Shown here in pieces: positions 4,175 through 59,857 of a stretch of 64,000 bases of DNA (positions are counted from its first letter, which is position 1; every line of letters starts with the position of its first letter). The stretch lies in assembly GCA_000165345.1 (NCBI GenBank), contig CM000433.1:928001-992000 (forward strand), read 5' to 3'. A program made the position numbers and the translations under genes. A model generated the notes under the pieces. The model saw only the letters and a list, made by a program, of their open reading frames with translations, ran no database searches and was not told the origin of the DNA.

Positions 4175-5530
4175 ATGAACTCATGTAATAGTTTGGGCTT
4201 ATGCTCAGCAGAATCTGAATCTCCAATATTGCAACATAATTATGATAGTGTAGATACAAATGGAAATACATCATTTGGAAGAACAAATATGTCAAGAAGA
4301 GATGATTTTTGTTGTATGAGTGATCGAAATGTAGAAGATAATGAAAACGATTCATTTATACCTCAAGATTGTTGTAGTTCAAATCCAAGAATAGTAGAAG
4401 ATAGCAATCAAGATTCGGTTTCATCTCCAGGAGGTAATGCTCAAATAGTAACAGTTCCACTAGTACAAGAAGTGAATGTAAGGGATAGAATAATAGAAGT
4501 TCCTGAAGTACATATAACACAGAAAATTCGTCAAAAAGTCATAGTAAAAGATGTAATTAGAAAGGTTCCAAAACAAGAAATTCAATATGTAGATAAATTT
4601 GTTGAAGTACCAGAAGTAAGAATTGTAGATAAATTTGTATCTAAACCTGTAACAAAATATGTTGAAAGGCATGTACCGAAAGTAGAAGTACGTGAAATAG
4701 TTAAGGAAATACCAAAAATTGAGATACAATATGTTGAGAAGATTGTAGAAGTACCAGAAATAAGAGTTGTAGATAAAATTGTTGAAATACCAACAATTAA
4801 ACATGTAATTAAAGAAGTACCAAAAATTGAAATAAAAGAAATACAAGTCGAAAAAATAGTTAAAGTACCAAAAATTGAGATAAAACAAATAGAAAAAGAA
4901 AGAAAAGTATTGGGCCCAGTAGAATATATTGATATACCTATAGAAAAGATTATATTAAAGCCAAATCCTCAAATTATTGAAAAGATTGTTCAAGTACCAA
5001 TACCAAAAGAAGTTGAAATTGAGGTACCTGTATATAATCCAGATATTAGAGATACTGTTGAAATAGAAGTTGATAATTATTATACTGTTGAAAAAGAAGT
5101 TGAAGTTCCTATACCTGGAAGAATTATTCCTGTACCAGTTGAAGTAGAAGTTGAGAAGATTGTTGAAGTACCTGTACAAGTTCCACAAGAACATATTAGA
5201 ATTGTACAAAAACAAGTACCTCAATATATTGAACACATTAGAACTGTTGAGATTCCTCAATACCAAGATGAGTTTGTTGAGGTTCCACAATATGTTCCAA
5301 TGGTACATCATACTATTATTAAACCTGTTGTATCTCAAGAATATAAAGAACTTCCTCCTGTTGTTGAGCAAGGAGATGTTAGATATGTCAAGGAGCCTCC
5401 ACAGTATTTAGAAACTGAATATATTCATGGAGAGCCTATTGAACTAGACTGCAATACTCCTCTTCCAGCTCCTCCATCTCCTAGATATACTACAATTAAG
5501 GTTAACAGTGCAAATAATAGGGATAGTTAG
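4175..5530 (+). CDS. Alveolin / inner-membrane-complex (IMC) repeat protein.
   Basis: About 280 aa of tandem EKIVEVPE / KFVEVPEVR / VEVPVQVP repeats. This is the diagnostic alveolin repeat of Alveolata. The N-terminus is Cys-rich (CC, CCSS). Confidence 0.75.
   Translation: MNSCNSLGLCSAESESPILQHNYDSVDTNGNTSFGRTNMSRRDDFCCMSDRNVEDNENDSFIPQDCCSSNPRIVEDSNQDSVSSPGGNAQIVTVPLVQEVNVRDRIIEVPEVHITQKIRQKVIVKDVIRKVPKQEIQYVDKFVEVPEVRIVDKFVSKPVTKYVERHVPKVEVREIVKEIPKIEIQYVEKIVEVPEIRVVDKIVEIPTIKHVIKEVPKIEIKEIQVEKIVKVPKIEIKQIEKERKVLGPVEYIDIPIEKIILKPNPQIIEKIVQVPIPKEVEIEVPVYNPDIRDTVEIEVDNYYTVEKEVEVPIPGRIIPVPVEVEVEKIVEVPVQVPQEHIRIVQKQVPQYIEHIRTVEIPQYQDEFVEVPQYVPMVHHTIIKPVVSQEYKELPPVVEQGDVRYVKEPPQYLETEYIHGEPIELDCNTPLPAPPSPRYTTIKVNSANNRDS
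4450..5300 (+). repeat. In-frame coding tandem repeats (alveolin EKIVEVP-type units). They also create spurious antisense ORFs at 4460..4888 and 4955..5371.
   Basis: Repeated GTTGAAGTACCAGAA-like units are visible in the DNA and the protein. Confidence 0.6.
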
Positions 5531-5680
5531 AATTTATTATTATTATTATTGTTATCATCGTCGTAATTACTAATTTAATTGATATTTTAATTAAAAATGT
5601 AACTATCTCATTTCATCTAAATCCATACTTTCTAAATAATATTGAAGACAATTTAGATGTCATGATCAAACTTCATGTAA

Positions 5681-5884
5681 TCCCCCCTCACTAATGCTGA
5701 AGAGGGTCAACAAAATCATGAAGTGACCTCCCCACCCTACATTTGACGACCGGCATAACCCCGGAACCAACACAAAACGCGTGCCCTTGAGCTACGTCTA
5801 GGAGGGGAGGAAGGGTCTCTAACGACCTGGATAAAACTAAAACTACGTTTAAGTGATACATTGGTTTCATTGGTGGGTGGGTTT
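5681..5884. other. Unassigned GC-rich block (about 55% GC against a 30% background), contiguous with the U2 snRNA 3' end. Candidate structured RNA or extended U2 3' domain.
   Basis: On the minus strand it ends with a Sm-like element followed by a terminal hairpin: CAUGAUUUUGUUGA then CCCUC-UUCAGCAUUAGU-GAGGG(GGG). There are internal hairpins: CCGG-GGUUAUG-CCGG and GGUC-GUUAGA-GACC. There is no coding potential; the overlapping ORFs 5691..5978 and 5737..5982 are artefacts. It is not recognisable as U1/U4/U5/U6. Confidence 0.3.
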
Positions 5885-6093
5885 GACCTGGGAAGGTCAG
5901 AGGGTATGCTGCACAAGTCGGTAGTGTAAGGACGAGGCAACAATTTGAACGAGACATGAGCAAGCTCAGAGATCGCATTCACCCAGAAAAAAATTTCTGT
6001 GACTATTAATAGGTCCCGTAGGACCCATATCAGTTGTCACACTGATAAGAACAGATACTACACTTGATCATAGCCAAAAGGCCGAGAAGGTAT
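5880..6093 (-). ncRNA. U2: U2 spliceosomal snRNA.
   Basis: Minus-strand 5' end ATACCTTCTCGGCCTTTTGGCTATGATCAAGTGTAGTATCTGTTCTTATCAG is near-identical to the universal U2 5' region, including the branch-point-binding GUAGUA and stem-loop IIa CUUAUCAG. Further elements follow: stem-loop IIb GGTCCTACGGGACC, Sm site AAATTTTTTTCTGG, and a GAGCTTGCTC stem-loop III loop. The 3' end is approximate, give or take 20 nt. Confidence 0.85.
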
Positions 6094-6842
6094 GCCCGTC
6101 TCCAGATTTTTTTTCTTAATTTGTATGCTCAACACGATTTGATGATGGTTCTGAAAATTCAATTATTTAAATTTAGGCGGGAAATACTATTAACCACAAA
6201 GTAAACTAATTTTTTTTCACATCAATGCTTACTATTTAAATAATTTAATCTAGTAAAGTATTACTTAGAAAAATATAATAAATAATTTATTAATCTTTTT
6301 ACTCAGAAAGAAAAGTGGAAAATGTTTAAACTATGTTCATTTTTTTAAAATATATATTTAATTTAATTGCAAATATTTATATTAATTTTATTGTAATTGT
6401 TTTCCCCAAATTTATTAAAAAAAAAATTGGCGGTAACTAATGCACTTTAAAAATTCTTGACATTTTTGCTGATAACTTTTTGGGCGGGCATTCCAAAAAA
6501 ATTAATTTTCGGTTTAAATTCTTAATTACTAGTTAAATCTTGAAATTTTCGAGTAAAAGGTAAAATTTGACCATAAAATTAACGTGTAAACGGATTAGAA
6601 ATAAAATATTTTGCTTATAACTTTTTACTAACTGGATTAAAGATATTATTTAATTGCTTTCAAGAATTTAATTATTCAAGTTTTTTATAGCAATTTTAAT
6701 GAATGAATATATTTTAATTCTGAATTAGGATGAAATAAGCAAGTAAATTAGAAATTATTATTAATTGTTATTATTATCGTTATTGTTATAACAATTATAC
6801 TAACTAACTAAATACTCTAATTTCTTAACAAATTTAATAAAA

Positions 6843-9800
6843 ATGATACCGGAGAAAATATTGGAAGAAAATCTGTTAGAACATGATTTACAAGGTTCAA
6901 ATGCATTAGTTCTACCAACTTCGAAAATTGAGAGAAAGAGAATACATCAAGAAAATAACTATTCAGAATCTGATCAGAATAGTGGGAGGCCATGTAAAGA
7001 GAAAAAAATGAGTAACAGAAAGAAAAGGAAGTTAAAACAATTAGAAGAGAAAAAAAGACTAAATAAGATACATGAAGATTTGACAAATGATTTAAAGAAG
7101 TATACTTTAAGTGATCAGGAGCTTCAGCTTATGATGGGCATTACAAATACAAGAATGAATAACAGACAAAAGCAAATACTTAGAAGTAGATATTTAGCAG
7201 CAAAGTTGGAATTACCAGATTTTCTTAAATTAAAAGATTGCTCTTCTAAATCAAAGAATTATATTTCCGAATCTGAATCTGAATCTGAATCTGAATCTGA
7301 ATCTGAATCCAAGTATGAATTTAAACCTGAACCTGAACCTGAACCTAAACCTAAACCTGAATATGAACCTGAATTTGAACCTGAAAATTCTAAAGTTGAT
7401 GATTTAGTTCATTCTACTGATCATGATAAAGAATTGAAATCCGAGAATGTAAATTTTGATTCAGAATCAAAATTAGAATTGAAAAAAAATGAGCAATTAA
7501 AAAAAGAAAGTCAGAAGAAAGAAAGTAAAGGTCGTTATATAAGGAAATACACGTCACTTGTAATAAAGAATGATAATGATAGACCAATCATTAATAGAAC
7601 TCCTGAAATAGAGTTTCAACGTTCAGAATTACCTGTTAGAGTTTATGAATTTGAGATTTTGGATGCTATTGAGAATAATGATGTTGTTATTGTAACAGGA
7701 GCAACAGGAAGTGGTAAATCAACTCAAGTACCTCAATTACTATATGAATCAGGATATTGTCCATTAAAGAAAGGAGAAAACAATAATAATGTAAATGAAG
7801 GTCAAAAAAGATATATGATAGGTTTAACACAACCAAGAAGGATTGCAGCAACATCATTAAGTAACAGAATAGGCGAAGAATTGAATGACTCAAAAGTTGT
7901 TGGATATCAAATACGTTATGATAAAAAGAATTGTACAAATGAAACAGTAATTAAAGTAATGACAGATGGTGTTTTATTACAAGAAATACAAAAAGATTTA
8001 TTATGTTCAAAGTATAGTGTTATATTAATAGATGAAGCACATGAAAGAACAGTAAATACCGATATTTTGATTGGATTATTATCTAGAATTGTAATATTTA
8101 GGAGAGAGGAGTATATTAGGAAAACTAAACAAGGATTAGAAGATAAATTACCACCATTAAAACTTATAATAATGTCAGCAACTTTAAGAGTTACTGATTT
8201 TTCAGAAAATCCCAAATTATTTTCAAAACCTCCTCCTGTTATTAATATAGAGACTCCAAACTTTCCTGTTACCCTTCACTTCAGCAAAACTACTCCAAAA
8301 GATTATATATCAGCAGCTTATAAAAAGATTCAACAAATTCATAATAGGCTTCCTCCTGGTTCTATTTTAGTTTTTGTAACAGGTAAGAAGGAAGTTAACC
8401 TATTGGTAAATTTGATCAATAATAAGGGGAAAAATAAAGCCAAAAGAAATTGTCTATTAAACAATACAACAAATTCTAAGATGAATATGCTTTTGGACTT
8501 TACGGAGAATAACCTCGAAGAGGAGGAGTTGGAGGAATTAGAAGAGGAGGAGGAGGAGGAAGAAGAAGAAGAAGAAGAAGAAGATGAAGAAGAAGAAGAA
8601 GAAGAAGAAGATGAAGATGATGATGATGAATTAGAAGAAGAGGAATTAGATGAATTAGAACAAGAGGAATTAGAAGAAGAGGAAAAAGAACAACAAAAAG
8701 AACAAGAAAATGAGGGAAGCAAAAACGTTTGGGAAAGTTTTGGCAAGAAGGATATCAGGAAGCGAAAAATAAGGCTTCACAAAGATGTGGATTCGTCTGT
8801 ATGGAAAGGTGGAGGAGTTATTGAGGAAGATGATAGTATGGAAGAAAAAGATTCAGCGAAAAAAGAAGAAGGAAATAAAGATAAGAAACCAGAAAATATT
8901 AAGATTCAACTTATAGCAATTCCCTTATATGCATCCATGAGCTTTGATGAACAAAAAAAAGCATTCAAATTGCCTGAATCTAATAATATAAGACACGTAA
9001 TCATTTCAACAAATGTTTCTGAAACTTCAATTACTATTCCAAATGTAAGGTATGTAATAGATACAGGTAAAGAAAAAAGAAGAGAATATACTAAAGGATC
9101 AGACTCTTCTCATTTTACTGTAGAATGGATTTCAAAAGCTTCAGCAAGCCAAAGATCTGGAAGAGCTGGAAGAGTTGGACCAGGTCATTGCTATAGACTT
9201 TACTCTTCACCAATCTACGAAAATATATTTCCAAAATTTGCTCCAATTGATATTTTATCAATACCTCTTGATTCTGTATTGTTATACATGCATTCTTTGG
9301 GAATACCAGATATTGTGGATTTCCCATTTCCCACTCCACCTGAAAAGTCACAAATAGATCAAGCTTATCAGCTTCTAACTATTCTTGGATCAGTTGAAAG
9401 CAGGAAATCCAAATATATATTAACTAACCAGGGAATTTCCATCTCGAGTTTTCCATTACCACCAAGATATGCAAAGATATTACTTTTAACAACGGCCTAT
9501 ATAAGAAAGAATTTGATAAGTGATGATTTAAAATCTTCTATAGAACTTTTACAACAAGTTTGTATATTAGTTTCATATTTATCAATAGGAAATTTAAGAG
9601 ATGAAAGTTTTTTATCAGATATTCAAAAAGAACATAATCAAGGAATAAAGAATGTTGATCATCAGAATTTGAATGATGATTTTGAATCATTTCCCTCAAA
9701 TTTAGGAAATGATATTGAAATTAATTTATGGTTTTGTATTAAATATTTGGAATATTATGGCTCAGGAAGAAAACATGAAAGATCTCTTTCTGATAAATTC

Positions 9801-10667
9801 TGTAAGAAATTTGAATTAAATTCAAGAGGATTATCTGAAATCAGATTAATGTCAATTCAACTTTTTAATATAACTAAAAAGAAATATTTGGATAAATTAA
9901 TTAATTCTGAAGCTAATTTAAATATTAAATGGCCTCCAAGTCTTCCAAATTATACTCAAAAGAATCTACTACGTACTTTCTTTATCTCTAGCTTTATTGA
10001 TCATATTGCTGTTAGAAATGATGGTAATTTGGTCTCTAAGGTTTCATATCAAATTCCTAATGAATCACCAAATAGTTATTCCGCTTTTATTCATCCTAGA
10101 AGTGTATTAAAAAGTTCCAAGCCAAAATTACTCATTTATAGCCAAATAATATCATCCACTGATAAAAACAGACATAATTTATGTGATTGCTTATTAATAA
10201 CAGCTGATGATATTTCTAAAGCTACATCTCTTAAACATTCACTTGTGGATTGTTCTAAAATTTTAAGCTTTCCAACTCCTTATTATAATATTGAAAGTGA
10301 TTCTATAATTGGATATTGTACTCCAAAATATAGAAATAATTCAGTTGTTATTGATCTACCTTCATCAGAAATTCAACTTGAAACCAATAATAATATTATT
10401 TTTGAAGTATTTGCTAGAGCTATATTAAATGGCCAAGTTTTTAAAGAATTTAAGAATCAGAGAATTTTAAAGGGTCTTAAATCCAAAAATAATTCTAACC
10501 AATTTAAACTTTTGGTTAATACTCTTGAACAGAATTCAATTTTTAATAAATCTCGATTGATTTCTAAATTCAAAACTAAGAGAGATTTTCTACTAAAGAA
10601 TATTCTACAATTATATGAAATTTCAGTTCACAATGATATTAGGAGCTTTTGGCCTCCAATTAAATAA
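6843..10667 (+). CDS. DHX37: DEAH-box RNA helicase, DHX37/Dhr1(Ecm16)-like, 1274 aa.
   Basis: Motifs in order: GATGSGKSTQVPQ (I), LTQPRRIAA (Ia), DEAHER (II), MSATLRVTDF (III), ISTNVSETSITIPNVRYVIDTG (V), QRSGRAGR (VI). A long acidic insert and a C-terminal OB-like region are present. The N-terminal low-complexity region has SESESE and PEPEPKP repeats. Confidence 0.75.
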   Translation: MIPEKILEENLLEHDLQGSNALVLPTSKIERKRIHQENNYSESDQNSGRPCKEKKMSNRKKRKLKQLEEKKRLNKIHEDLTNDLKKYTLSDQELQLMMGITNTRMNNRQKQILRSRYLAAKLELPDFLKLKDCSSKSKNYISESESESESESESESKYEFKPEPEPEPKPKPEYEPEFEPENSKVDDLVHSTDHDKELKSENVNFDSESKLELKKNEQLKKESQKKESKGRYIRKYTSLVIKNDNDRPIINRTPEIEFQRSELPVRVYEFEILDAIENNDVVIVTGATGSGKSTQVPQLLYESGYCPLKKGENNNNVNEGQKRYMIGLTQPRRIAATSLSNRIGEELNDSKVVGYQIRYDKKNCTNETVIKVMTDGVLLQEIQKDLLCSKYSVILIDEAHERTVNTDILIGLLSRIVIFRREEYIRKTKQGLEDKLPPLKLIIMSATLRVTDFSENPKLFSKPPPVINIETPNFPVTLHFSKTTPKDYISAAYKKIQQIHNRLPPGSILVFVTGKKEVNLLVNLINNKGKNKAKRNCLLNNTTNSKMNMLLDFTENNLEEEELEELEEEEEEEEEEEEEEDEEEEEEEEDEDDDDELEEEELDELEQEELEEEEKEQQKEQENEGSKNVWESFGKKDIRKRKIRLHKDVDSSVWKGGGVIEEDDSMEEKDSAKKEEGNKDKKPENIKIQLIAIPLYASMSFDEQKKAFKLPESNNIRHVIISTNVSETSITIPNVRYVIDTGKEKRREYTKGSDSSHFTVEWISKASASQRSGRAGRVGPGHCYRLYSSPIYENIFPKFAPIDILSIPLDSVLLYMHSLGIPDIVDFPFPTPPEKSQIDQAYQLLTILGSVESRKSKYILTNQGISISSFPLPPRYAKILLLTTAYIRKNLISDDLKSSIELLQQVCILVSYLSIGNLRDESFLSDIQKEHNQGIKNVDHQNLNDDFESFPSNLGNDIEINLWFCIKYLEYYGSGRKHERSLSDKFCKKFELNSRGLSEIRLMSIQLFNITKKKYLDKLINSEANLNIKWPPSLPNYTQKNLLRTFFISSFIDHIAVRNDGNLVSKVSYQIPNESPNSYSAFIHPRSVLKSSKPKLLIYSQIISSTDKNRHNLCDCLLITADDISKATSLKHSLVDCSKILSFPTPYYNIESDSIIGYCTPKYRNNSVVIDLPSSEIQLETNNNIIFEVFARAILNGQVFKEFKNQRILKGLKSKNNSNQFKLLVNTLEQNSIFNKSRLISKFKTKRDFLLKNILQLYEISVHNDIRSFWPPIK
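7269..7390 (+). repeat. Hexanucleotide microsatellites (GAATCT)7 and (CCTGAA/CCTAAA)n. They encode (SE)n and (PE/PK)n inside the helicase N-terminus.
   Basis: Direct perfect repeats are visible at 7269-7310 and 7326-7390. Confidence 0.7.
8504..8700 (+). repeat. (GAA/GAG/GAT)n trinucleotide run encoding a poly-Glu/Asp stretch of about 60 aa. The antisense poly-Ser ORF 8339..8746 is an artefact.
   Basis: Visible as gaagaagaagaagaagatgaagaa... in the sequence. Confidence 0.8.
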
Positions 10668-11088
10668 TTACTATTTCATCTTTGTGAGTATATAAAAAGT
10701 AAGAGGGGGAAAAAAAGAAATAAACTACTACCAAACAATAAGAAATTTATTATAATCATAGTAATTATTTATTTCTACATTATATTAAACTGTGTAAATA
10801 TTTAATTTAATTACATTTTATTTTTTTTATTTCCTTTTTGCATGTATGCATTAAATATTACAATGGTTTTGTGTGGACAAAAAAAAAAAATTCGGCGGGA
10901 AAACTGAAATTTGTATTTAGAGCAAAAATAAATAAATAATATAAATACAAATAATTTATTTTAAAAAAAAAAAAAAAGAAAAGAATTGGTGGAATATTAT
11001 AATTACAAGAATAAGAGATCAAGCTAAGTTTAGATAATATAGTTAAGTTTCCAAAGTCATTGGCTTTTAATATCTTGAATGACAGGAA

Positions 11089-22562: not shown

Positions 22563-23739
22563 AATTTTATTCTTAAAAATGCTTATTCAAAGATCAAAAG
22601 TTTTAATAGAAACCTTCTTATTACCATATACGCGTCTATTGAATATAATATTCGTTTTTACAACTAAATTGAATAATTTATTTTATAAATTTGTTTTAAA
22701 TCACTTTATTTCCTATCTAAACAAATTTTCTTTTCCTTTCCAATATTAGTAGTAAATGAGTCAAATTAACCAAGTAGTTAATTCTATATTTCAAGCAAGA
22801 TTTATGAAACTTTCTAATTTCCAAGATCCCCAGGATTCCTAATTGTTCAAGTAAAAATTAAACATTTGCACTTTCCCCCTCACTTATTTCTATGACTCAA
22901 AATAGACAAATAGTGCATTTTTGCACTTTTGAGTGATCAGAATAAGATATTTAGAATAACGGATTAGGCGCCACCCCACAGCAATGGCTTAATGTTAATA
23001 TATAAAAAACTTATTGTAATTAATTATTATAAATTTATGTTTAATGATAAATTAATTATTCTTTTTTTTAAATAGCTAGCTTAAAATATTCTCAATATTT
23101 GCTCAATTATACAGCTATATTTGTCTGAGTGTAAACAAATTTTTGTATTGCAGAGAAGAATTATTTGCATTACTCAACTATCATTTATTTTTACCTTCAT
23201 TTCATTCACCGAATCATTCGTTTCAAAGTGCTTTTTATAAGTTTTGTATTCCTCTTGTTAAAGAAAAATTTACAAATCCTTATTTTAATAGCATTTATTT
23301 TTCAATAATCAAATAACTTTTTGTAATGGAATAGTGTTTGCCGCCAAATACATGCATTTTCTCCACATGTAGTTAAAATTGCATTTAAAGAAAATAATAA
23401 TAAAAAAGGAAAAAACTATTTAAATAATACTGATAAATTTAATGGTCAATTAAACTAAGAGATACAACAAATAGAATTCTACTCAGATACTAAAATCAAT
23501 CAATTAATTTTAAGTATCTTGAAATTCTTTTAATAATTTAAGTATTTAATTAAATTTCTAATTCCCAATAATGCAATTTAAAATATGAAAAAAAAAATAA
23601 AACAATCAATGCACATAATTTATATTTTTTGTGAAATTATTTGTTGTCAAAAAAGAAACAATAATAATCCATTTTATTTTCTTAATCTTGCTTATTAATT
23701 TAATCATTACTTTGAGAATAATAATCTCAAAACACTTAT

Positions 23740-31592: not shown

Positions 31593-33839
31593 ATGAGAGA
31601 AACTTCTGATTCTGAGTTAAGTGATATCACAGAAATTAATTCCGATGATGAATTACCCCTAGACTCTATTGGAGATTATTCAATTATTTCATTAAAAGGA
31701 GTACTTAAAGAGATTATATCATGTGGAAGTGGATACGAAAAACCAAGTATTGGTGATGAACTTCTTATTGAATTAGAAGGTCCAAATAAAGTAGAATCCA
31801 GTACTAATGGTGGTTGTATTTGTAGTAGTAGTAGTAGTAGTAGTAGTAATACAAATACTACTCAGGAAGAAAATAGCAGATTAAAGCTCATTCTGGGTGA
31901 CTATTCAATGGATAAATATGACTCTACTAGGAAGAGAGAAATACCATGGGGTATTGAAATGGCACTTAGAAAAATGCTTAAAGGAGAGAAATCTAATATA
32001 TTAATCAGAAAAGACTCAGTTTTCTCAAAACCAAGAGATTTAAATGGTAAAATCTGTTCAAATTCAATAATACATGTGGAGGATTATAAGAATTATAATA
32101 ATAGATCCAAAAAGTTGATAAATTTGATAAAAAAGGAAGTAAATGAATTTGATATATATAAAATAACCTTGCATGACTTTTATCATATTGAGATGATTTG
32201 TGATAAAGTTTATAAGAAAATTTGGAAAAGAGGAGTTCATTTAAAATCTCCAAATAAAAAGGACAAAGTGGAATTACTGATTTCTAAATTGCAGCTTGAG
32301 ACTGTTCTGGACAATTTTGCTACGTCTCCAAAACTAAATAACTTGAATTCTGGATTAGAGTGGATAAAGGTTTCTTTAAATCTTGAAAATTTATCAGAAA
32401 GTAATAAAATAATCAAAGAGATCTTTGGAAATGAAATATTCCCTATGAATAACTTTATCTATTGTATATTATCCATGAAACTTGGTGAGATTTCTGAGTT
32501 TAGAATTTATCCTACTAATAATGAAAAGCTTAACATACTAATTCATTTAACAGGATTTCACTGGGAAAAGAATATCCGCATAAAACTCCCATTTAATAAA
32601 GAAATTCAAAATAATAATGTTAAATTATCATCCTTTGAGAACGAGTCACTATATAATGACAATTCCATTCTTAAAGACGGAAAATTATCAGCTAAAAGAA
32701 TTTCTAGCTTAAATTTAGAACATAATACAAGAATTAATATTCTTTTAGAAAACTTTACTTTTGTTGATAATTTTAACCAAGGAAAAAGAATTGAACTTTC
32801 ATTACCATTTAAATCCACTGAAAACATTAAAAAAGCTCTTTTACAAGTTACTCCAGGCTTTTACAATCTTCCAATATGGCTTGAACAATCTATTCTTTAT
32901 TGTTTTCTTGGAGGAAAATATACTATTAAAATTCCTTTATCAATTATCTTCCTTTTCCCCCCATCAGAACTTCAAGTTAAATCAAAAAGTATAATTCAAC
33001 AAAAAACAAATTCTTTATTTATTTCTGAAAGTAATGCAAATAAAAATTCGCATGCAATTTGGGAGGCGGGAAAATTAATCAAAGAACTTGAGAATAAGGG
33101 ATATAAAATTGAAGATAATATTGAAGAAAATTTAGGGTTAGTTTTTGAGTTGGACTTGTCGATTTGTACGAGAGAAGTTGTTGAGAATTATATTCCAGCA
33201 ATTCCAAGTACTGCGAAAATGGAATTTGAATATTACTATAAATTGGGAAGAATTCTTAACAATTATAATGATTTAATATATAATAAAACTTGGAATATTT
33301 TGGCTTTGGAAGTTTTTGATAAATTTTTATATGTAAGTATTTTGCTTCCATTTTACTCAAAGTTGAATAATTGTGAACAATCTAAAAATGGTGTAAAATT
33401 GAAAATTATTGAGAAAGAAAATATTGATAATTCCAAGAATGAATATAATTATCATAATAATAACAAAACTCTCAATGAACAAAATCAGAAATTAATTATT
33501 TTGAAGTATGATAATAATTTTATTGAAAATGTAAATAATGATTCAACAATTAACAAAGAAATGGATTCAATCTCAATTTCTCATAAAATCTTAAACGATT
33601 TAGAATATGAAGAAAAGGAGCATTTAGAAAGCTTTATTAATGTTATTAATATCATACTTAAGATATATTGTGATATGAAACAGTTTGAAAAAGGCTTGAA
33701 TCTACTTAAAAAATATAAATTTCTTAAGGAATTTATATCTACTAATTCTGATATTGTTCAATTATCAGCTCTTAAAAATTATTACTCTAATAATGATACT
33801 TGTAAAATAACAGATTTGAGTTTAAATCAATTTTTTTAA
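31593..33839 (+). CDS. Hypothetical protein, about 748 aa. Contains a poly-Ser run.
   Basis: Long ORF. The track start at 31587 is a TTG; the first ATG is at 31593. An (AGT)9 repeat at about 31822-31848 encodes Ser9. No domain recognised. Confidence 0.5.
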   Translation: MRETSDSELSDITEINSDDELPLDSIGDYSIISLKGVLKEIISCGSGYEKPSIGDELLIELEGPNKVESSTNGGCICSSSSSSSSNTNTTQEENSRLKLILGDYSMDKYDSTRKREIPWGIEMALRKMLKGEKSNILIRKDSVFSKPRDLNGKICSNSIIHVEDYKNYNNRSKKLINLIKKEVNEFDIYKITLHDFYHIEMICDKVYKKIWKRGVHLKSPNKKDKVELLISKLQLETVLDNFATSPKLNNLNSGLEWIKVSLNLENLSESNKIIKEIFGNEIFPMNNFIYCILSMKLGEISEFRIYPTNNEKLNILIHLTGFHWEKNIRIKLPFNKEIQNNNVKLSSFENESLYNDNSILKDGKLSAKRISSLNLEHNTRINILLENFTFVDNFNQGKRIELSLPFKSTENIKKALLQVTPGFYNLPIWLEQSILYCFLGGKYTIKIPLSIIFLFPPSELQVKSKSIIQQKTNSLFISESNANKNSHAIWEAGKLIKELENKGYKIEDNIEENLGLVFELDLSICTREVVENYIPAIPSTAKMEFEYYYKLGRILNNYNDLIYNKTWNILALEVFDKFLYVSILLPFYSKLNNCEQSKNGVKLKIIEKENIDNSKNEYNYHNNNKTLNEQNQKLIILKYDNNFIENVNNDSTINKEMDSISISHKILNDLEYEEKEHLESFINVINIILKIYCDMKQFEKGLNLLKKYKFLKEFISTNSDIVQLSALKNYYSNNDTCKITDLSLNQFF

Positions 33840-43290: not shown

Positions 43291-45958
43291 TTAATTCTTC
43301 TTTGCAGCTCTTTCAACCTCCATTTGAACAAGATCACTAAAGCTAACTTTATTTACCTTTTTCTTCCTAGAGACTTTTTTTGTTGATACATTATTAAAAT
43401 TTTCTGAATTATTTATAGATTTTTGAGAATTATCAAGATTTTTTACTTTAACTTGTTCATTATTAAATCCATTATTTATTGGATTATTATTTTCTTTTGA
43501 TTCTATTGAATTTAAAACAATTTCTTTATTAATTTTANCCAGTAGAAGCAGAATTATGTTTCTCACTGTTCTTTTAACANAATNCTGTTTTATTTTCATT
43601 TTGAAGATTACTATTATNGGTTATTATTAATATTACTTTTCNNATATTCATGCTCATTTTTAATTTTTCTAATAATTTATTATTTTCACTGATTGCTGTT
43701 GAAATTTTTTCAATAACACCATCACTTTGTTTTCTTGTAATATCAAATACTTTAGAAGCATAATCATTATCATCGTTTACCATTCCAAGAATTTTTTTTT
43801 GTTGTTCTTCTAAAGCTGTTCTTGAAATTAATGGTTTAACTTTAGTTTGTTGATAACTTTCTTCTTTATTCAATATATCTGAGAACTTTTCTTGAAATTC
43901 TCTGGTGTTACTTGCCATTTTTTCTTGAAATATTTGTGTAATACTTTTATTGTTCTTTTTTTCATTGACATTTTCCGGGTTATTTTCATTCTTTGATGAC
44001 TTTTCAATAAAGTTATTTTCGTCATATATTTTCAAAATCTCAAGTTCTTTTTCTAATCCAGTAAACATTTCATCTATTCCATTTTCTTCCATAGTTTGAT
44101 TTACTTTTTCATTTAAATGATGATAACGATTTTTGTTATAATTGTTTTGACCGTTAGGAGTATTAACATTCTGTTTAGTATTCATTTTTTTTTCACTTGG
44201 ATGATTACGATTATTAAGATCGTAAGTATATCCTATATCGTATTCTGATACTTCTTCAATATTATCTTCATATAAATTATTTACTGTATTATCAGTAACA
44301 ATTTCTTTTTCTTTATCTTGTAAATATTCATACATTGAGCCAACAACATAATCATCATCATCATTATCATCACTATTATTATTATTATTATTAAGATAAC
44401 TTTCATGATGAATGTCATTATTTTCTACCAACTTTTTTTTACTATTAGCATTAATCATATTAGATTCATTGATTATTGCCTCTATTCTTGCCAAATTATC
44501 ACTACTAGATTTTGAAGTATTATTAATATTGACGTTTTTACTTCTGACCATATTTGCATGTAATGATACACCATTTTCATTGTTTTCATAGTCGTAATCA
44601 TCAATTTGTTCTATTTCATGCTCTTCCTCTTGTATTTCGTTGATTAAATCTTCAGAAGGATGAACTTCGCAATTACTCATTGTCCAATTTAATGGATAAT
44701 CATCTTTATACGTTAATTCATCTAATAATTCAAGATTTATTGGTTGATATAAACCATAAACTGCTAATCTATTAGAACTGTACGTTGTAACATCATAATT
44801 ACTATCAATTTGTTGTGTTAATAAATTATATAATATATCAATTTGTAACAATAATACATATGGAGAAAAATTCTCCATATATAAACTTGAAAGTGGTACA
44901 AGTATAAATGGTATTTCAGAATCTGTAATATTAGTCATCACTTCATCATCACCTTCATTTTCATTATTTAAAAAACTATTATCAAATTTTTTATTTGAAG
45001 TATTATGATTGACAATTGATAATTCTTTCTGTATACTCAAATATTTATGAATTGTCTGAAAAGAATAGTAAACAATTTCATGATTCCATTTAAATTCTTG
45101 CAATGTTTTTGGAACGTAATACATTTGACATAAGATTGCAGTATCAATCCATCCCATTTGATATAAAAGTACCATAATTAACATAAATCCATTTGCAGTA
45201 ATATCACATTGTAATGGATTAATATATTTTGGTTCAAAATGTTTGACATGATTATTTATAACATTATTCTTTTGTCCCATTTTAATGTTGTTATAACTAT
45301 TAAAATCAATATACCCTTTTTCTTGCTCTTCTTCTCTTTCATTAAGACGATTACTTTCCACTTTATCTCGATTTTCCATTTCTTCTATATTTAAACTCAA
45401 ATATTGCCCCCAACTTTCTGCTCTTTCCAATAAGTTCTCATCTTCAGTCTGATTAAGATTCTTCTTCATAATCATTTTATAAAAATTCTCTTTTGTTTCA
45501 TTTGACAATGATAAACCATGCAACATCAAATACTTGTTCATGTTTTCTATAATTATTTTTGAATTTACTCGTAAATATGGAATTAAATAATGATGAAATA
45601 CTGTACTAATAAATCTAATTACACTCCCTTTATTCATATCATATATTTCTTCAGCTGCTATTAATTCATTATTTCCATTTAAATATTCAGGTAATGTACT
45701 CTTTTCTGGAGGATTTAATATAAAATTTAGACATAAATTAATATTATTAAGTGCTTGAGATCTGTTTAATGGTCTTTTATAAATCAATAAATCACCTTCA
45801 GTATTATTATACCCATATAAACTTGACCATTGTTTTAATAAGTTCACTAGTAATATTCCATCTCTAAATTCTTCGTAAAAATTCTCACTTGTCAATTCTA
45901 TTGACCATATATTAATATAGTTGATATATCTAGTAATAAATATCTCAAATACCTCCAT
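43291..45958 (-). CDS. Large low-complexity protein with an N-terminal calponin-homology-like region. Split into two ORFs in the track by assembly ambiguities (N at 43538, 43580, 43584, 43618, 43642-43643).
   Basis: The N-terminus SENFYEEFRDGILLVNLLKQWS resembles a CH domain. The two track ORFs overlap by 26 nt exactly at the Ns, so the frameshift is probably an assembly artefact. Confidence 0.4.
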
Positions 45959-47425
45959 TTTTAATATAAATATATTTATATTATTTTATTCTATTTATTT
46001 AACTCGATCTTAAATGAATAACTTGTATTTATAACCAGAATAAATTCATACAAAAAAAATAACAACTGTCAATTTATTTTATATATTTTAATTATTGCAA
46101 CTTTTCCTCTTTATCTCTTAATTTTTTATTTACTTAAACATAACGATTTCTTAAAATCCATTAATTTTTTGTAATGTTATTAATTACTCAAGTATTACAA
46201 TTACTAATCTTTTTTTTTATTTATATTTCTTCTATTTTTATTATTTATTAATGTCAATCATGGATCTATTTTATAATCACTTGCATTTTTTTTGCAAAAC
46301 CGCATGCAGATTGCATGCATACTGACACGTGTCAAATAATAAACAATGTGGACAAAAAAATAAACAAACATAATAATTAATTTCAGAGAAAAAAACAAAT
46401 GAGAAAATAATAGCGCATTAGCATAGAATAGCTAATAAATAAATTTTGCTAGAGCATTTTCATTATTAAAGAAAAATTAAAGAAAAAAAAAATTAACATA
46501 TAAATTTATAAATAATGAAATTAATTTTTCAAAGACTTTCTTTAACCTTCCCCCCCCTCAGCATCCCCCCACCCATCAAATAATTTGTATAATACCACTA
46601 AAAAAAAGGCAAGATACGTAATTTGCCCGCCTAAAATTCCCCACATTTCTTAAATATTTTATATAATTTGGAGTAGTTAATGGAAATAAATATTTAATAA
46701 TAATTTTAATTTATTAACTTATAAATATACTTGAAAATTTACTAAATTATATCTGGGATGAGGGGCAATATCTCCCTACATTCCGTGGAATTTACGTACT
46801 TAGTTGTCTATTTCGCTTTGTAGACGTCTACAAATTAATATATAGGATAAAATAAATAGAAAAATAAATAGAAGTTAATTGCACCTGCTCCACTAGTATT
46901 GCAATCTGCATGTGCACTAGATGAATAATGGGTAACTTGGTGGATATATTAAATTTGCTGCTATTTAATAAATAGGGGGAGTATAATTAATATTAATGAA
47001 ATTTTTTTTTTAAATTTTGCAATAAAATAGTTTGAAAAAAATATTCATATTAAGGCTAATTTTCATTAGAAAAACTACAAAAAAAAAAAAAGAGATTTTC
47101 TTTTCTTCCATATAATTTAGGGATATATAATAGCCAATATTACCTTTGGAAGTTGGTTAATTGACAATTTTAAGTGGTTTTTGTAACAATATTCTCGGCT
47201 TTAATTACATTGTTGTGTTGACGACATTGATCAAAATAACAGAGAAAATTAATTAATTATATTAGACATTAATATAGTAAAACCTATTTATATTACTATA
47301 TTATCTTCAAATTAAGGCTAATTTCTAAAAATTAAACCAAATATTTACACAGAACTTATAACATATATACATGTTATACTAAGAATTACTTTAAGCTTAT
47401 ATATACCAAAGTTAATTTATAATTA

Positions 47426-50023
47426 ATGTATAATCAGCAAAAAATATTAATTTCCCACCCAAATTCTCTGAATGAAAGGAATCAATCGTTTTCTCCTCCA
47501 TCAACAACTCTAACTCCTTCATCCACGCCTTCTAGCACTCCTACACCATCTTCATCATCTGTTCCTACTCCAAATATTGCACAGATCGCATCTTTAGCTG
47601 CATCTCATATGACAAGTCAACAAATGGTATCTCCTTTTATGTTCCAACAGGGGATAAACCAATCATTCAACAACGGAATGATGAATACTGCTTTATATAA
47701 TGATCCAGCATTATTACAGCTTTACTTTACAAACTTATTCCAAGGAAACCATGGATTTATGCCTCCAATGTATCCATACGGTTCTAGTTACGCTCCTTAT
47801 ATTCCAGGAGCTAAAAATGGAATCCCTGTTACAGAAAATACATCAACTCCACAAATAGTATTCAAAGATAATTTGGAGAATATGAAGAATTTAGCAACAA
47901 ACTCTATAGTTTCTCCAAAATCTAACGATTTGGAAAAGTTAGTCAAAAATAATGGTAATGATAACTTAGTACAAGTAATTTTGTCAACTCCTGAAAGAAC
48001 TAAACAAGAAAATATTATATCGACAGACAAAATAGAAATCGCAGTAAGCACTGAAAATGGAAATGTTTATGACACATCAATGAAAAAAAGACGAAAAGAA
48101 TGCTCAATAGACTCAGTAAACAGTGCTGTTGAGACAGTAGCAACAGAAACTAACTCAAATATGGATGAATGCAGTGCAAAAAAGAAGTCCATAAATGAAG
48201 TAGTGGAAACCAGGTCCTTTGAAAATTCACCAGAGGATGAAGCAGATAATGCAGGAGAAGAGGATGATAACTCAGAAAACGTAGAAACTTTAGGAGAGAA
48301 TCGTATAGAAAGTTTACAAAGCTCTCCACAATATTTAAACTTGAAATCAGAGGAAAATAAATCAAGCTCAAATAACTTCAATTCCTCAATCGGAGGAGGA
48401 AATTCCATTTCAACAAATTCTCATGAAGACGAGCTTTTTCTGTCTAATGATAGAAAAACCTCTTTTGATAAGATTATGAGAATTCACTCCAGCTTGATTG
48501 GATCGCTTTCTTGGACAGTACCAACAGACAAAGATGACATCATTCTAAAATCTGCCAAAGAAAACAATGGAAATTCTACTAGTGAAACATCCAACAATAA
48601 TAATGCAACAAGTATCAATAATAACAGCTCATCTTCTACTAACAAACATGATGAGTCCAACAAGTCTATCAACCAAAATGGACAAGACGAGTACAATCCA
48701 TTTATCCAAAGGGACTATAATTCAGCAAATGTGACATGTTTCTCACCCAGAATGCTTCCAGATTGGCAACTTAACTGGCTTAGAGATGTGACTAGATCCC
48801 TCTCTAGTGTACCAAAAAGTCCAATGACAGGAATTCACTTTGACAGAACAAAGCCCGCATGGGCAGTCTCCTATTATGAATGTGAAACCAGAAAATACTA
48901 CTTCTTCTTCATCCCTGATCTCTCAGAATATACCATTGAGATAACTTTAGCAGCTGCTATTGGTTGCAGGCAAAATGTTGTCGCAAGAGGTGCGCATAAG
49001 AGAAAAAAGCCTGGAGTCCTTACATTTAACCTTTACAGTGGACAGTTTGAAAAATCTAACCCAGAAGCCCCTACTGTAATTGAAGGTGGCTCAGAACACG
49101 CAGGAATGTGCAATCAAAGATTCAGGAAGTCTGCAGTACTTGGAAACAGCAACGGATGTAATAATTTAAAGAATCAGTGTAGTAACTTCCCCATATCACA
49201 CACAAACACAGGGGCTGTTTCATCCGTTATTAACAATCCCATTGCTCCTGATTTCTCCTCCAATAACATCCAAGTCCACCCAAACAACCACCATTTCCTT
49301 AATATCTTTGCACCCAACAGAAATCATATTAACCTAATCGACCCTTCAATGTCTGCACTCAATAACTTTCAAGTTACAAGTCAAATGCATGCTCATCCAC
49401 ATGCAGGGCCCGCTCAAATATTGTTCCCGCACATGGCAATAAATGGCCAGCATTCTGCACATCCAGCTACAATGGCTTCGCTAATGCATGGAAATCCTCA
49501 TGCTATGATGATGGATGCTTTTCAACAAAATGCATTGAGAAATGCATCTTTGCTTTATGCAGCAGCGTTATCATCTTCTACTGGCTCAACTCATAATCCT
49601 ATTCCTTCTGTTGCAATTCCTTCAAATGTTAGCTCTGCCATTGGAGTAGCTACACATTCGGCGGGAAATATAGAGGCAAATATTACAAATGGTGGAAACC
49701 CAGTAATTTTGCCTTCGCCATTAACCACAGCTTCTACTGCTCCTACAGCGCCTAGCACCCCAACTGCTACACCTACATCCAATACAACTCATATGGAGAC
49801 AACAAATAAACTTTCTGTGGCTGGTGTTTGTAGCAATAATATTGAAAATACAAATGCTAATGATACAGAAAATATTGCATGCAAGACTTCTATGGAATTT
49901 ACGTGTGCTCCAACAACTCAAAAAGTTGCGCAAGTTTTATCTTCTACCAATGAAAATACTGGTAATGGCAGTATAATGCTAGATACAGTGGCTTTAGATA
50001 AGTCGATTCAGGGAGAAAAGTAG
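47426..50023 (+). CDS. ApiAP2 transcription factor: one AP2 domain embedded in an S/T/P/N-rich low-complexity protein.
   Basis: MTGIHFDRTKPAWAVSYYECETRKYYFFFIPDLSEYTIEITLAAAIGCRQN fits the AP2 fold pattern G(V/I)xFD...W.A.W...G.R..F......EA...A. A basic stretch, KRKKPG, follows. Confidence 0.55.
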   Translation: MYNQQKILISHPNSLNERNQSFSPPSTTLTPSSTPSSTPTPSSSSVPTPNIAQIASLAASHMTSQQMVSPFMFQQGINQSFNNGMMNTALYNDPALLQLYFTNLFQGNHGFMPPMYPYGSSYAPYIPGAKNGIPVTENTSTPQIVFKDNLENMKNLATNSIVSPKSNDLEKLVKNNGNDNLVQVILSTPERTKQENIISTDKIEIAVSTENGNVYDTSMKKRRKECSIDSVNSAVETVATETNSNMDECSAKKKSINEVVETRSFENSPEDEADNAGEEDDNSENVETLGENRIESLQSSPQYLNLKSEENKSSSNNFNSSIGGGNSISTNSHEDELFLSNDRKTSFDKIMRIHSSLIGSLSWTVPTDKDDIILKSAKENNGNSTSETSNNNNATSINNNSSSSTNKHDESNKSINQNGQDEYNPFIQRDYNSANVTCFSPRMLPDWQLNWLRDVTRSLSSVPKSPMTGIHFDRTKPAWAVSYYECETRKYYFFFIPDLSEYTIEITLAAAIGCRQNVVARGAHKRKKPGVLTFNLYSGQFEKSNPEAPTVIEGGSEHAGMCNQRFRKSAVLGNSNGCNNLKNQCSNFPISHTNTGAVSSVINNPIAPDFSSNNIQVHPNNHHFLNIFAPNRNHINLIDPSMSALNNFQVTSQMHAHPHAGPAQILFPHMAINGQHSAHPATMASLMHGNPHAMMMDAFQQNALRNASLLYAAALSSSTGSTHNPIPSVAIPSNVSSAIGVATHSAGNIEANITNGGNPVILPSPLTTASTAPTAPSTPTATPTSNTTHMETTNKLSVAGVCSNNIENTNANDTENIACKTSMEFTCAPTTQKVAQVLSSTNENTGNGSIMLDTVALDKSIQGEK

Positions 50024-58992: not shown

Positions 58993-59857
58993 AAAATATA
59001 AAAGAATTAAGTAAACCTAGAACTATATTAGAAATTATGACGCTTATATTGCATATATTAGCTTTAATTGTCCTAAACTCTCGGAAATTCTTCTCTTTCT
59101 TCCACCAAGAATCAACTCAAATATCTCTTATATACCTTAAATTAGTTCATTAATTAGTAAAGTTATTTAATTCTCTACTCGTAATAGATACCTTAATAGA
59201 TTTCTGACAACTCCTGCAATTCAACACACCTATAATATTTATCTTGTTTTACCGCCTAAATGGAAAAGTCAATCAAATAAATCATTACATGCAGGCAGAG
59301 AAAAAAAGAAAATCTATTCTAAAAAAACCTACCAGTTGGATTTGTACAAAATAACAATTTAATGAAATTGGTTATATTAGCTTAAATTTGTTTTTGGCCT
59401 TTTTTTCTCTCTATTTTTAACATTCAATTTATAAATAATCCAAATTTCCCGCCAAAACACTAGTGGCAATTAAATATTTTATAAGGCATGAATAAATAAT
59501 AGCAATTAAAAATATATTTGTATATTTATTGCATATAAAAAGATTTAAAAAAAAATCTGATTTAAAAATAATTTCAGATAGGAAAATTATATTAGTAAGA
59601 AAAGTTAAAGGTATAAATTGCAAGATTGAAGTTAAGTTTTTATGTAAATTCAACGATAGAGAAAAAATTAAGTGCACATAGAAACCAATAGTTGGATTGT
59701 GGGAGTCTCTAATGATTAAATATATATATCAAAAAGGGCCCAGAAAAAGTAATATTTGCACGTGTGTGCTCCATAAATTCTTCCTCAATATAAAGCAGAA
59801 TTAATTACTACACGGATTAGACTTAAGAAAACGATTTTTAAATTTGAATCTTAAAAC

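Follow-up and report, generated by a model that had tools for sequence, protein, structure and literature searches.

Does the G+C-rich island at this locus carry a spliceosomal RNA gene, or do its open reading frames (ORFs) encode small proteins? The initial annotation of the window (the whole 64-kb stretch of DNA analyzed here) had proposed a U2 snRNA gene on the minus strand at 5880-6093, overlapped by artefactual ORFs. An Rfam 15 scan of the 64 kb returned a match to RF00004 (U2) at 6093..5899 on the minus strand, scoring 157.2 bits against a gathering score of 46 (E = 1.2e-32); the covariance-model check with RF00004 proposed in that annotation was thus positive, and the locus belongs to the U2 family. 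The match was complete, covering model positions 1-192 of 192 without truncation, and was the sole Rfam match in the 64 kb at gathering thresholds. U12, a member of the same Rfam clan (CL00006) as U2, was outscored by RF00004 at the locus, and a tRNA scan of the 64 kb yielded no tRNA genes. Following the Rfam extent, the gene comprises 195 nt (5899..6093, minus strand), with U2 position 1 at 6093. The 5' end of the annotated span was therefore retained, whereas the end at 5880 lies beyond the Rfam match, which stops at 5899, and includes a conserved hairpin outside the Rfam model.

The elements of U2 were located along the minus strand from its first nucleotide, where ATACCTTCTCGGCCTTTTGGCTATGATCAAGTGTAGTATCTGTTCTTATCAG begins and where the conserved 5' domain, ATACCTTCTCGGCC...CTTATCAG, was found to start as had been claimed. 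Stem-loop I (positions 7-26, 6068..6087) was assigned from the Rfam structure and falls within positions 1-66, which were 98-100% identical in the orthologues; its column 9 with 24 was unpaired in all five sequences covering that part. The branch-point recognition sequence GUAGUA (positions 33-38, 6056..6061) is single-stranded between stem-loops I and IIa and was invariant in six sequences. Stem-loop IIa (positions 47-66, 6028..6047) has six pairs, 100% paired and invariant, and stem-loop IIb (positions 68-83, 6011..6026; GGUCC-UACG-GGACC) has seven, also 100% paired, with one compensatory change. Between IIb and III, the single-stranded Sm-site region AAAUUUUUUUCUGG (positions 98-111, 5983..5996) contains AAAUUUUU, invariant in six sequences; the Sm site named earlier, AAATTTTTTTCTGG, was present at 5996..5983 on the minus strand, and the Sm-binding site itself, AAAUUUUUUUC, occupies 5996..5986, which the model shows as single-stranded. 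Compared with the textbook Sm site AUUUUUG, the window has an A-U7-C variant, with C after the U run, and the C. bovis orthologue has a canonical site, AAUUUUUGG, at the same place. Stem-loop III (positions 113-148, 5946..5981) showed two-sided changes in five of the eight pairs of its lower stem and five invariant apical pairs. The string GAGCTTGCTC, previously described as its loop, does occur at 5967..5958 (positions 127-136), but GAGCUUGCUC at these coordinates is the apical stem plus loop, not the loop alone. Stem-loop IV (positions 151-188, 5906..5943) has twelve pairs, three of them compensatory, and its loop CUUACACUACCG at 5930..5919 agrees with the Rfam consensus aUUgCAcUaccg and would be the one bound by U2A'/U2B'' (consensus AUUGCAGUACC). 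The U6-pairing side of U2 (helices Ia, Ib, and II) was identical or near-identical to the consensus; no U6 gene was found in the window or in the fetched orthologue loci. The RNA is expected to function like U2 in general: GUAGUA (6061..6056) would pair with the intron branch site, U6 would be bound by the U2 5' end and the stretch beside stem-loop I, the Sm ring would be nucleated at the U-rich Sm site (5996..5983), and stem-loops III and IV would bear U2-specific proteins.

The neighboring genes placed the locus phylogenetically and provided the means for finding its orthologues. ORF 4175..5530 on the plus strand encodes an alveolin/IMC protein (Pfam PF12314 in homologues), which was 88% identical to its counterpart in C. 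canis, 86% to a Logan-assembly protein, 76% to C. bovis, and 61% to both C. muris and C. serpentis, in agreement with the apicomplexan origin assumed in the initial annotation. On the other side, ORF 6843..10667 encodes a 1274-aa DHX37-like helicase, whose orthologues carry Helicase_C, OB_NTP_bind, and DHX37_C. Because these neighboring proteins match that genus, the window is assigned to Cryptosporidium, with C. canis as the nearest sampled relative. Neither flanking protein had an exact copy in a set of 15 billion proteins, which indicates that the source is a Cryptosporidium species or isolate missing from that set. The U2 and alveolin genes are convergent, and the U2 and helicase genes are divergent. 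Orthologue loci were taken as the DNA around five alveolin orthologues, and in each a U2 match lay on the opposite strand just downstream of alveolin: in C. canis (L001 4334..4140, 151.9 bits), C. bovis (L002 7727..7532, 154 bits), C. muris (L003 7601..7406, 152.8 bits), C. serpentis (L004 1882..1687, 154.6 bits), and a Logan contig (L005 3811..3641, 127.1 bits), where the match ends at the contig edge. Gene order is conserved, as U2 occupies the same slot between the alveolin and DHX37-like helicase genes in these five other Cryptosporidium loci, and the orthologues were 83-93% identical to the window U2 overall. The G+C content of the window was 27% overall and 21.6% in non-coding DNA. Nine isolated N bases were present (21874, 42744, 42767, 43538, 43580, 43584, 43618, and 43642-43643), several of them in the 3' end of ORF 43574..45958, where they are read as X in its translation, which suggests that the consensus in that region is of draft quality.

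The U2 secondary structure is conserved among these sequences. When the Rfam consensus structure was mapped on the six-sequence Cryptosporidium alignment and pairs were counted, standard pairs occupied 92.3% of pair cells, compared with 25-41% in the control, in which the 3' partners were slid by 1-3 columns. Eleven pairs changed on both sides: five in the lower stem of stem-loop III, three in IV, one in IIb, and two in the hairpin that follows the Rfam model. The observed covariation score was reached by none of 500 shuffles. Folded as a single sequence, U2 with its tail gave z = -2.73, and the predicted fold recovered the stems. The claim of a minus-strand U2 gene was thus borne out by the RF00004 score, by syntenic orthologues scoring 127-155 bits, and by the 11 covarying pairs.

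The two ORFs at this locus were nevertheless a reason to consider a protein-coding function. Both lie on the minus strand, as had been stated for a joint extent of 5691..5982, and their individual coordinates were corrected to 5691..5978 (95 aa, ATG start) and 5737..5982 (81 aa, GTG start). Two ORFs of 81-95 aa in a genome whose non-coding DNA is rich in stop codons might suggest that the island encodes a small protein of 95 or 81 aa and that its resemblance to U2 is secondary. However, neither ORF had a Pfam match at E <= 1, and the composition of the island predicts an open run of this kind: the longest stop-free run in the 421-nt island was 99 codons, compared with 78 +/- 19 in dinucleotide shuffles, 14% of which reached 99. 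In the adjoining A+T-rich intergenic stretch the longest stop-free run was 36. The frames and their starts were also unconserved: the 95-aa frame closed in C. canis (after 40 codons), C. bovis (0), C. muris (35), and C. serpentis (33) and had lost its ATG, and the 81-aa frame ended at 2 codons in both C. muris and C. serpentis. Where the latter frame was open in other species, its translation past the U2 part was unrelated, and within the shared part the substitutions tracked RNA pairing, so that a protein-coding origin of the island is effectively refuted. The overlapping ORFs are non-coding, and the evidence supports their interpretation as chance products of G+C-rich sequence. They exist because the island is G+C-rich, in keeping with the earlier description of both the ORFs and the island; G+C was 0.45-0.49, compared with 0.216 in the remaining non-coding DNA, and this richness extends about 200 nt beyond the span first noted, to about 5680. 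Whether the U2 sequence could itself be a pseudogene, or a decaying extra copy, was also considered, since snRNA pseudogenes are frequent in some eukaryotes and the copy search here covered 64 kb of the genome. Against such decay, the match to RF00004 was full-length and untruncated, the functional motifs were invariant, the substitutions over six species were compensatory, and both the synteny and the flanking signals were conserved. U2 is, moreover, reported as single-copy in C. parvum, where it was one of the 55 Rfam/Infernal benchmark genes and was recovered by small-RNA sequencing (PMC9465071); that recovery would lend indirect support to the expression of U2 here as a stable capped RNA of about 190-215 nt. 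A relic at this position is accordingly most improbable, if marginally less so than a coding island, and the U2 gene here is almost certainly a working gene, the orthologue, in a related species, of the published C. parvum U2 (PMC9465071). We conclude with near certainty that the locus is a functional, probably single-copy U2 snRNA gene of a Cryptosporidium species, read from 6093 on the minus strand.

Conservation at the 3' end of the gene continued past the Rfam model. Directly after the last model position, and outside RF00004, lies an extra hairpin of 6 bp, U-GACCU-UCCC-AGGUC-A (5884..5899, minus strand), which was present in all six sequences, with variants such as GACCC/GGGUC in C. canis, CGACC/GGUCG in C. 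bovis, and CGACCC/GGGUCG in C. muris. For this hairpin alone, 97.2% of cells were paired, compared with 11-47% when the partners were slid; two of its six pairs swap U:A <-> C:G, and it also appeared in the minimum-free-energy fold of the single sequence. Its covariation is modest evidence, drawn from six sequences and probably two or three independent events. A conserved downstream box of 21 nt, AAACCAATGTATCACTTAAAC (5847..5867, minus strand; motif AAACCAATNTATC), was 71-95% identical across the genus within a spacer that was otherwise unalignable. In every species the box was located 7-16 nt past the extra hairpin, conservation ended right after it, and its copies elsewhere in the window showed no excess over chance. 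From their position and conservation in six sequences of one gene, the hairpin (5899..5884) and the downstream box (5867..5847) are probably 3'-end signals, which would together direct 3'-end formation. The mature U2 would then measure about 195-198 nt if the hairpin belongs to the precursor only, or about 211-214 nt if it is retained. Literature searches for the 3'-end formation of apicomplexan snRNAs and for the structure of Plasmodium U2 yielded no usable results.

Beyond the downstream box, the G+C richness continued while sequence conservation did not. The island as a whole spans about 5640 to 6131, the sole non-coding G+C island in the 64 kb; the part past the box is a tract of about 165 nt (5680..5846, assigned to neither strand), with a G+C content of 0.51 compared with 0.216 in other non-coding DNA. 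Equivalent spacers were G+C-rich relative to their backgrounds in C. bovis (L002 7306..7488, 0.63 vs 0.255), the Logan contig (L005 3337..3591, 0.56 vs 0.28), C. canis (L001 3965..4094, 0.48 vs 0.30), and C. muris (about 76 nt, 0.38 vs 0.225), and in C. serpentis the spacer was almost absent. In the intestinal species, where the tract measured 130-250 nt with G+C 0.48-0.63, composition was thus kept and sequence was not. Homology between species, as searched by blastn-short, amounted to one 11-mer common to C. canis (E = 0.007) and nothing more. No conserved ORF was found in 5680..5846 and its equivalents in C. bovis, the Logan contig, and C. canis. A derivation of the tract from a longer alveolin C-terminus was considered and rejected, as the orthologues stop at the same homologous residues and tblastn returned nothing; a second RNA family in the distal part of the island was likewise rejected, as an Rfam scan of 4500..7500 at E <= 10 gave chance-level matches only. 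Our guesses for the tract are a zone in which U2 transcription pauses or terminates, or a bias in repair at this site.

Two other assignments of these 3' sequences would lead to a different picture of the gene. In every species the downstream box is found past the stop codon of the alveolin gene, on the strand opposite to that gene, and it might be an element of this convergent neighbor, acting for instance in its 3' UTR or in polyadenylation. The box keeps a nearly constant spacing of 7-16 nt from the hairpin, whereas the alveolin stop codon can be as close as about 15 nt (C. serpentis) or as far away as 316 nt (the window), which indicates that the box belongs to U2 and makes an alveolin element unlikely. 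The tract at 5680..5846, in turn, could be another non-coding RNA gene, one that evolves fast, or the U2 of intestinal species could reach about 400 nt by including it. Such an RNA would account for a G+C content of 0.48-0.63 in four species against backgrounds of 0.22-0.30, at the only non-coding G+C island of the window, as neutral A+T-biased drift would not keep such a content once the sequence had diverged beyond alignment. Yet nothing of the tract sequence was conserved between species whose U2 is 89-93% identical, and its folding was no more stable than that of shuffles on either strand (z = -1.08 and -0.54 for the two strands of the window, +0.60 for L005, and -0.42 for C. bovis). The absence of an Rfam match at E <= 10, the shrinkage of the tract to about 76 nt in C. 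muris and nearly to nothing in C. serpentis, and the placement of the conserved box upstream of it, which suggests processing before the tract is reached, also weigh against an additional or extended RNA, and we regard it as slightly less likely still than an alveolin element. A broader arrangement can be put forward tentatively, as a possibility less likely than not: a genus-wide, two-part U2 3' signal, composed of the hairpin and the 21-nt box, and followed in the intestinal species by a tract whose G+C content is kept, possibly as a buffer in which the polymerase pauses or terminates ahead of the convergent alveolin gene. If true, this two-part signal would set how the 3' ends of Sm-class snRNAs form in a lineage where this is undescribed.

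The 5' flank of the gene also contained conserved elements. An upstream box, AGAACCATCATCAAATCGTGTT, was located at -59..-38 (6131..6152, minus strand); its core, AGARCCATCA, was equally spaced from the gene in each of the five sequences that extend into the 5' flank, and no other exact copy of the box was found in the window. Judging from this placement, the box is probably a proximal promoter element of the snRNA type. Further upstream, at -91..-83 (6176..6184, minus strand), the E2F-like sequence TTTCCCGCC was conserved in C. canis and corresponded to GCCCGCC in C. bovis; it may belong to U2 or to the divergently oriented helicase gene. The more general pattern TTTSCCGCC was found six times in the window (6176-6184, 10894-10902, 23337-23345, 33065-33073, 49660-49668, and 59445-59453), compared with 0.09 expected from shuffles, and four of these sites fall in the intervals between long ORFs. 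TTTSCCGCC probably acts as a promoter element throughout this genome. Separately, the region 46300..46660, upstream of the long ORF 47426..50023, had the highest G+C content (0.42) in non-coding DNA outside the U2 locus and contained two GCATGCA palindromes (46303-46320), a C-rich run (about 46549-46575), and TTTGCCCGCCTAAAA (about 46632). It had no Rfam match and looks like a promoter.

The U2 gene itself is ordinary and canonical, of an already-known kind that any standard RNA annotation would find; it adds nothing new about U2, and its value lies chiefly in annotation. Gene calling from ORFs alone would put one or two false proteins of 81-95 aa at this locus and miss an essential splicing RNA, and masking based on an Rfam scan cures both errors. 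If the upstream box, the extra hairpin, and the downstream box are common to other snRNA genes, they may offer an entry point into how snRNAs of Cryptosporidium are transcribed and their 3' ends formed, and might aid the design of small-RNA expression cassettes, such as those for guide RNAs.

A search of metagenomes for U2 of the Cryptosporidium type, using an exact 26-mer of stem-loop IIa, returned one contig, a marine sequence of the JGI collection (Ga0163180_10121085, L006 1..1699). This contig carries a head-to-tail array of snRNA and 5S genes on one strand, comprising U4 (12-147), U5 (224-333), U2 (650-843), U1 (917-1077), and 5S rRNA (1289-1410), all above the Rfam gathering scores. Its U2 shares the 26-mer of stem-loop IIa but is without the extra hairpin and the downstream box, and was rejected as being of the Cryptosporidium type; the clustered arrangement presumably recalls the snRNA/5S arrays of dinoflagellates.

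Compared with RF00004 and with the U2 of C. parvum, the window gene has the same order of stem-loop I, branch-point recognition sequence, IIa, IIb, Sm site, III, and IV, and its first 66 nt are almost identical to the RF00004 consensus. The differences from RF00004 are minor: the loop of IIa is GUGUGACAAC, the Sm site is A-U7-C, and a sixth hairpin follows stem-loop IV. The candidate upstream box, known here from the U2 gene alone, is similar to the proximal sequence element (PSE) of animal and plant snRNA promoters in being a conserved block centered near -50 of an snRNA start, but has no sequence similarity to it. At the 3' end, metazoan snRNA genes have an Integrator-dependent 3' box 9-19 nt past the mature end, with the consensus GTTTN0-3AAARNNAGA, and plant snRNA genes have a 3' box with the consensus CA-N3-10-AGTNNAA. 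The candidate box described here is likewise a short conserved element a few nucleotides past the terminal stem-loop of an Sm-class snRNA gene, located 7-16 nt after the hairpin; its sequence does not match the metazoan consensus and resembles that of plants loosely. In yeast, the 3' end of U2 is formed via a hairpin in the 3' extension that is recognized by the RNase III Rnt1. The Cryptosporidium hairpin similarly lies just past the conserved U2 body and may be a processing site, but in place of the AGNN tetraloop of Rnt1 substrates it has loops of UCCC, UCCG, GACACA, or CCU on a stem of 5-7 pairs.
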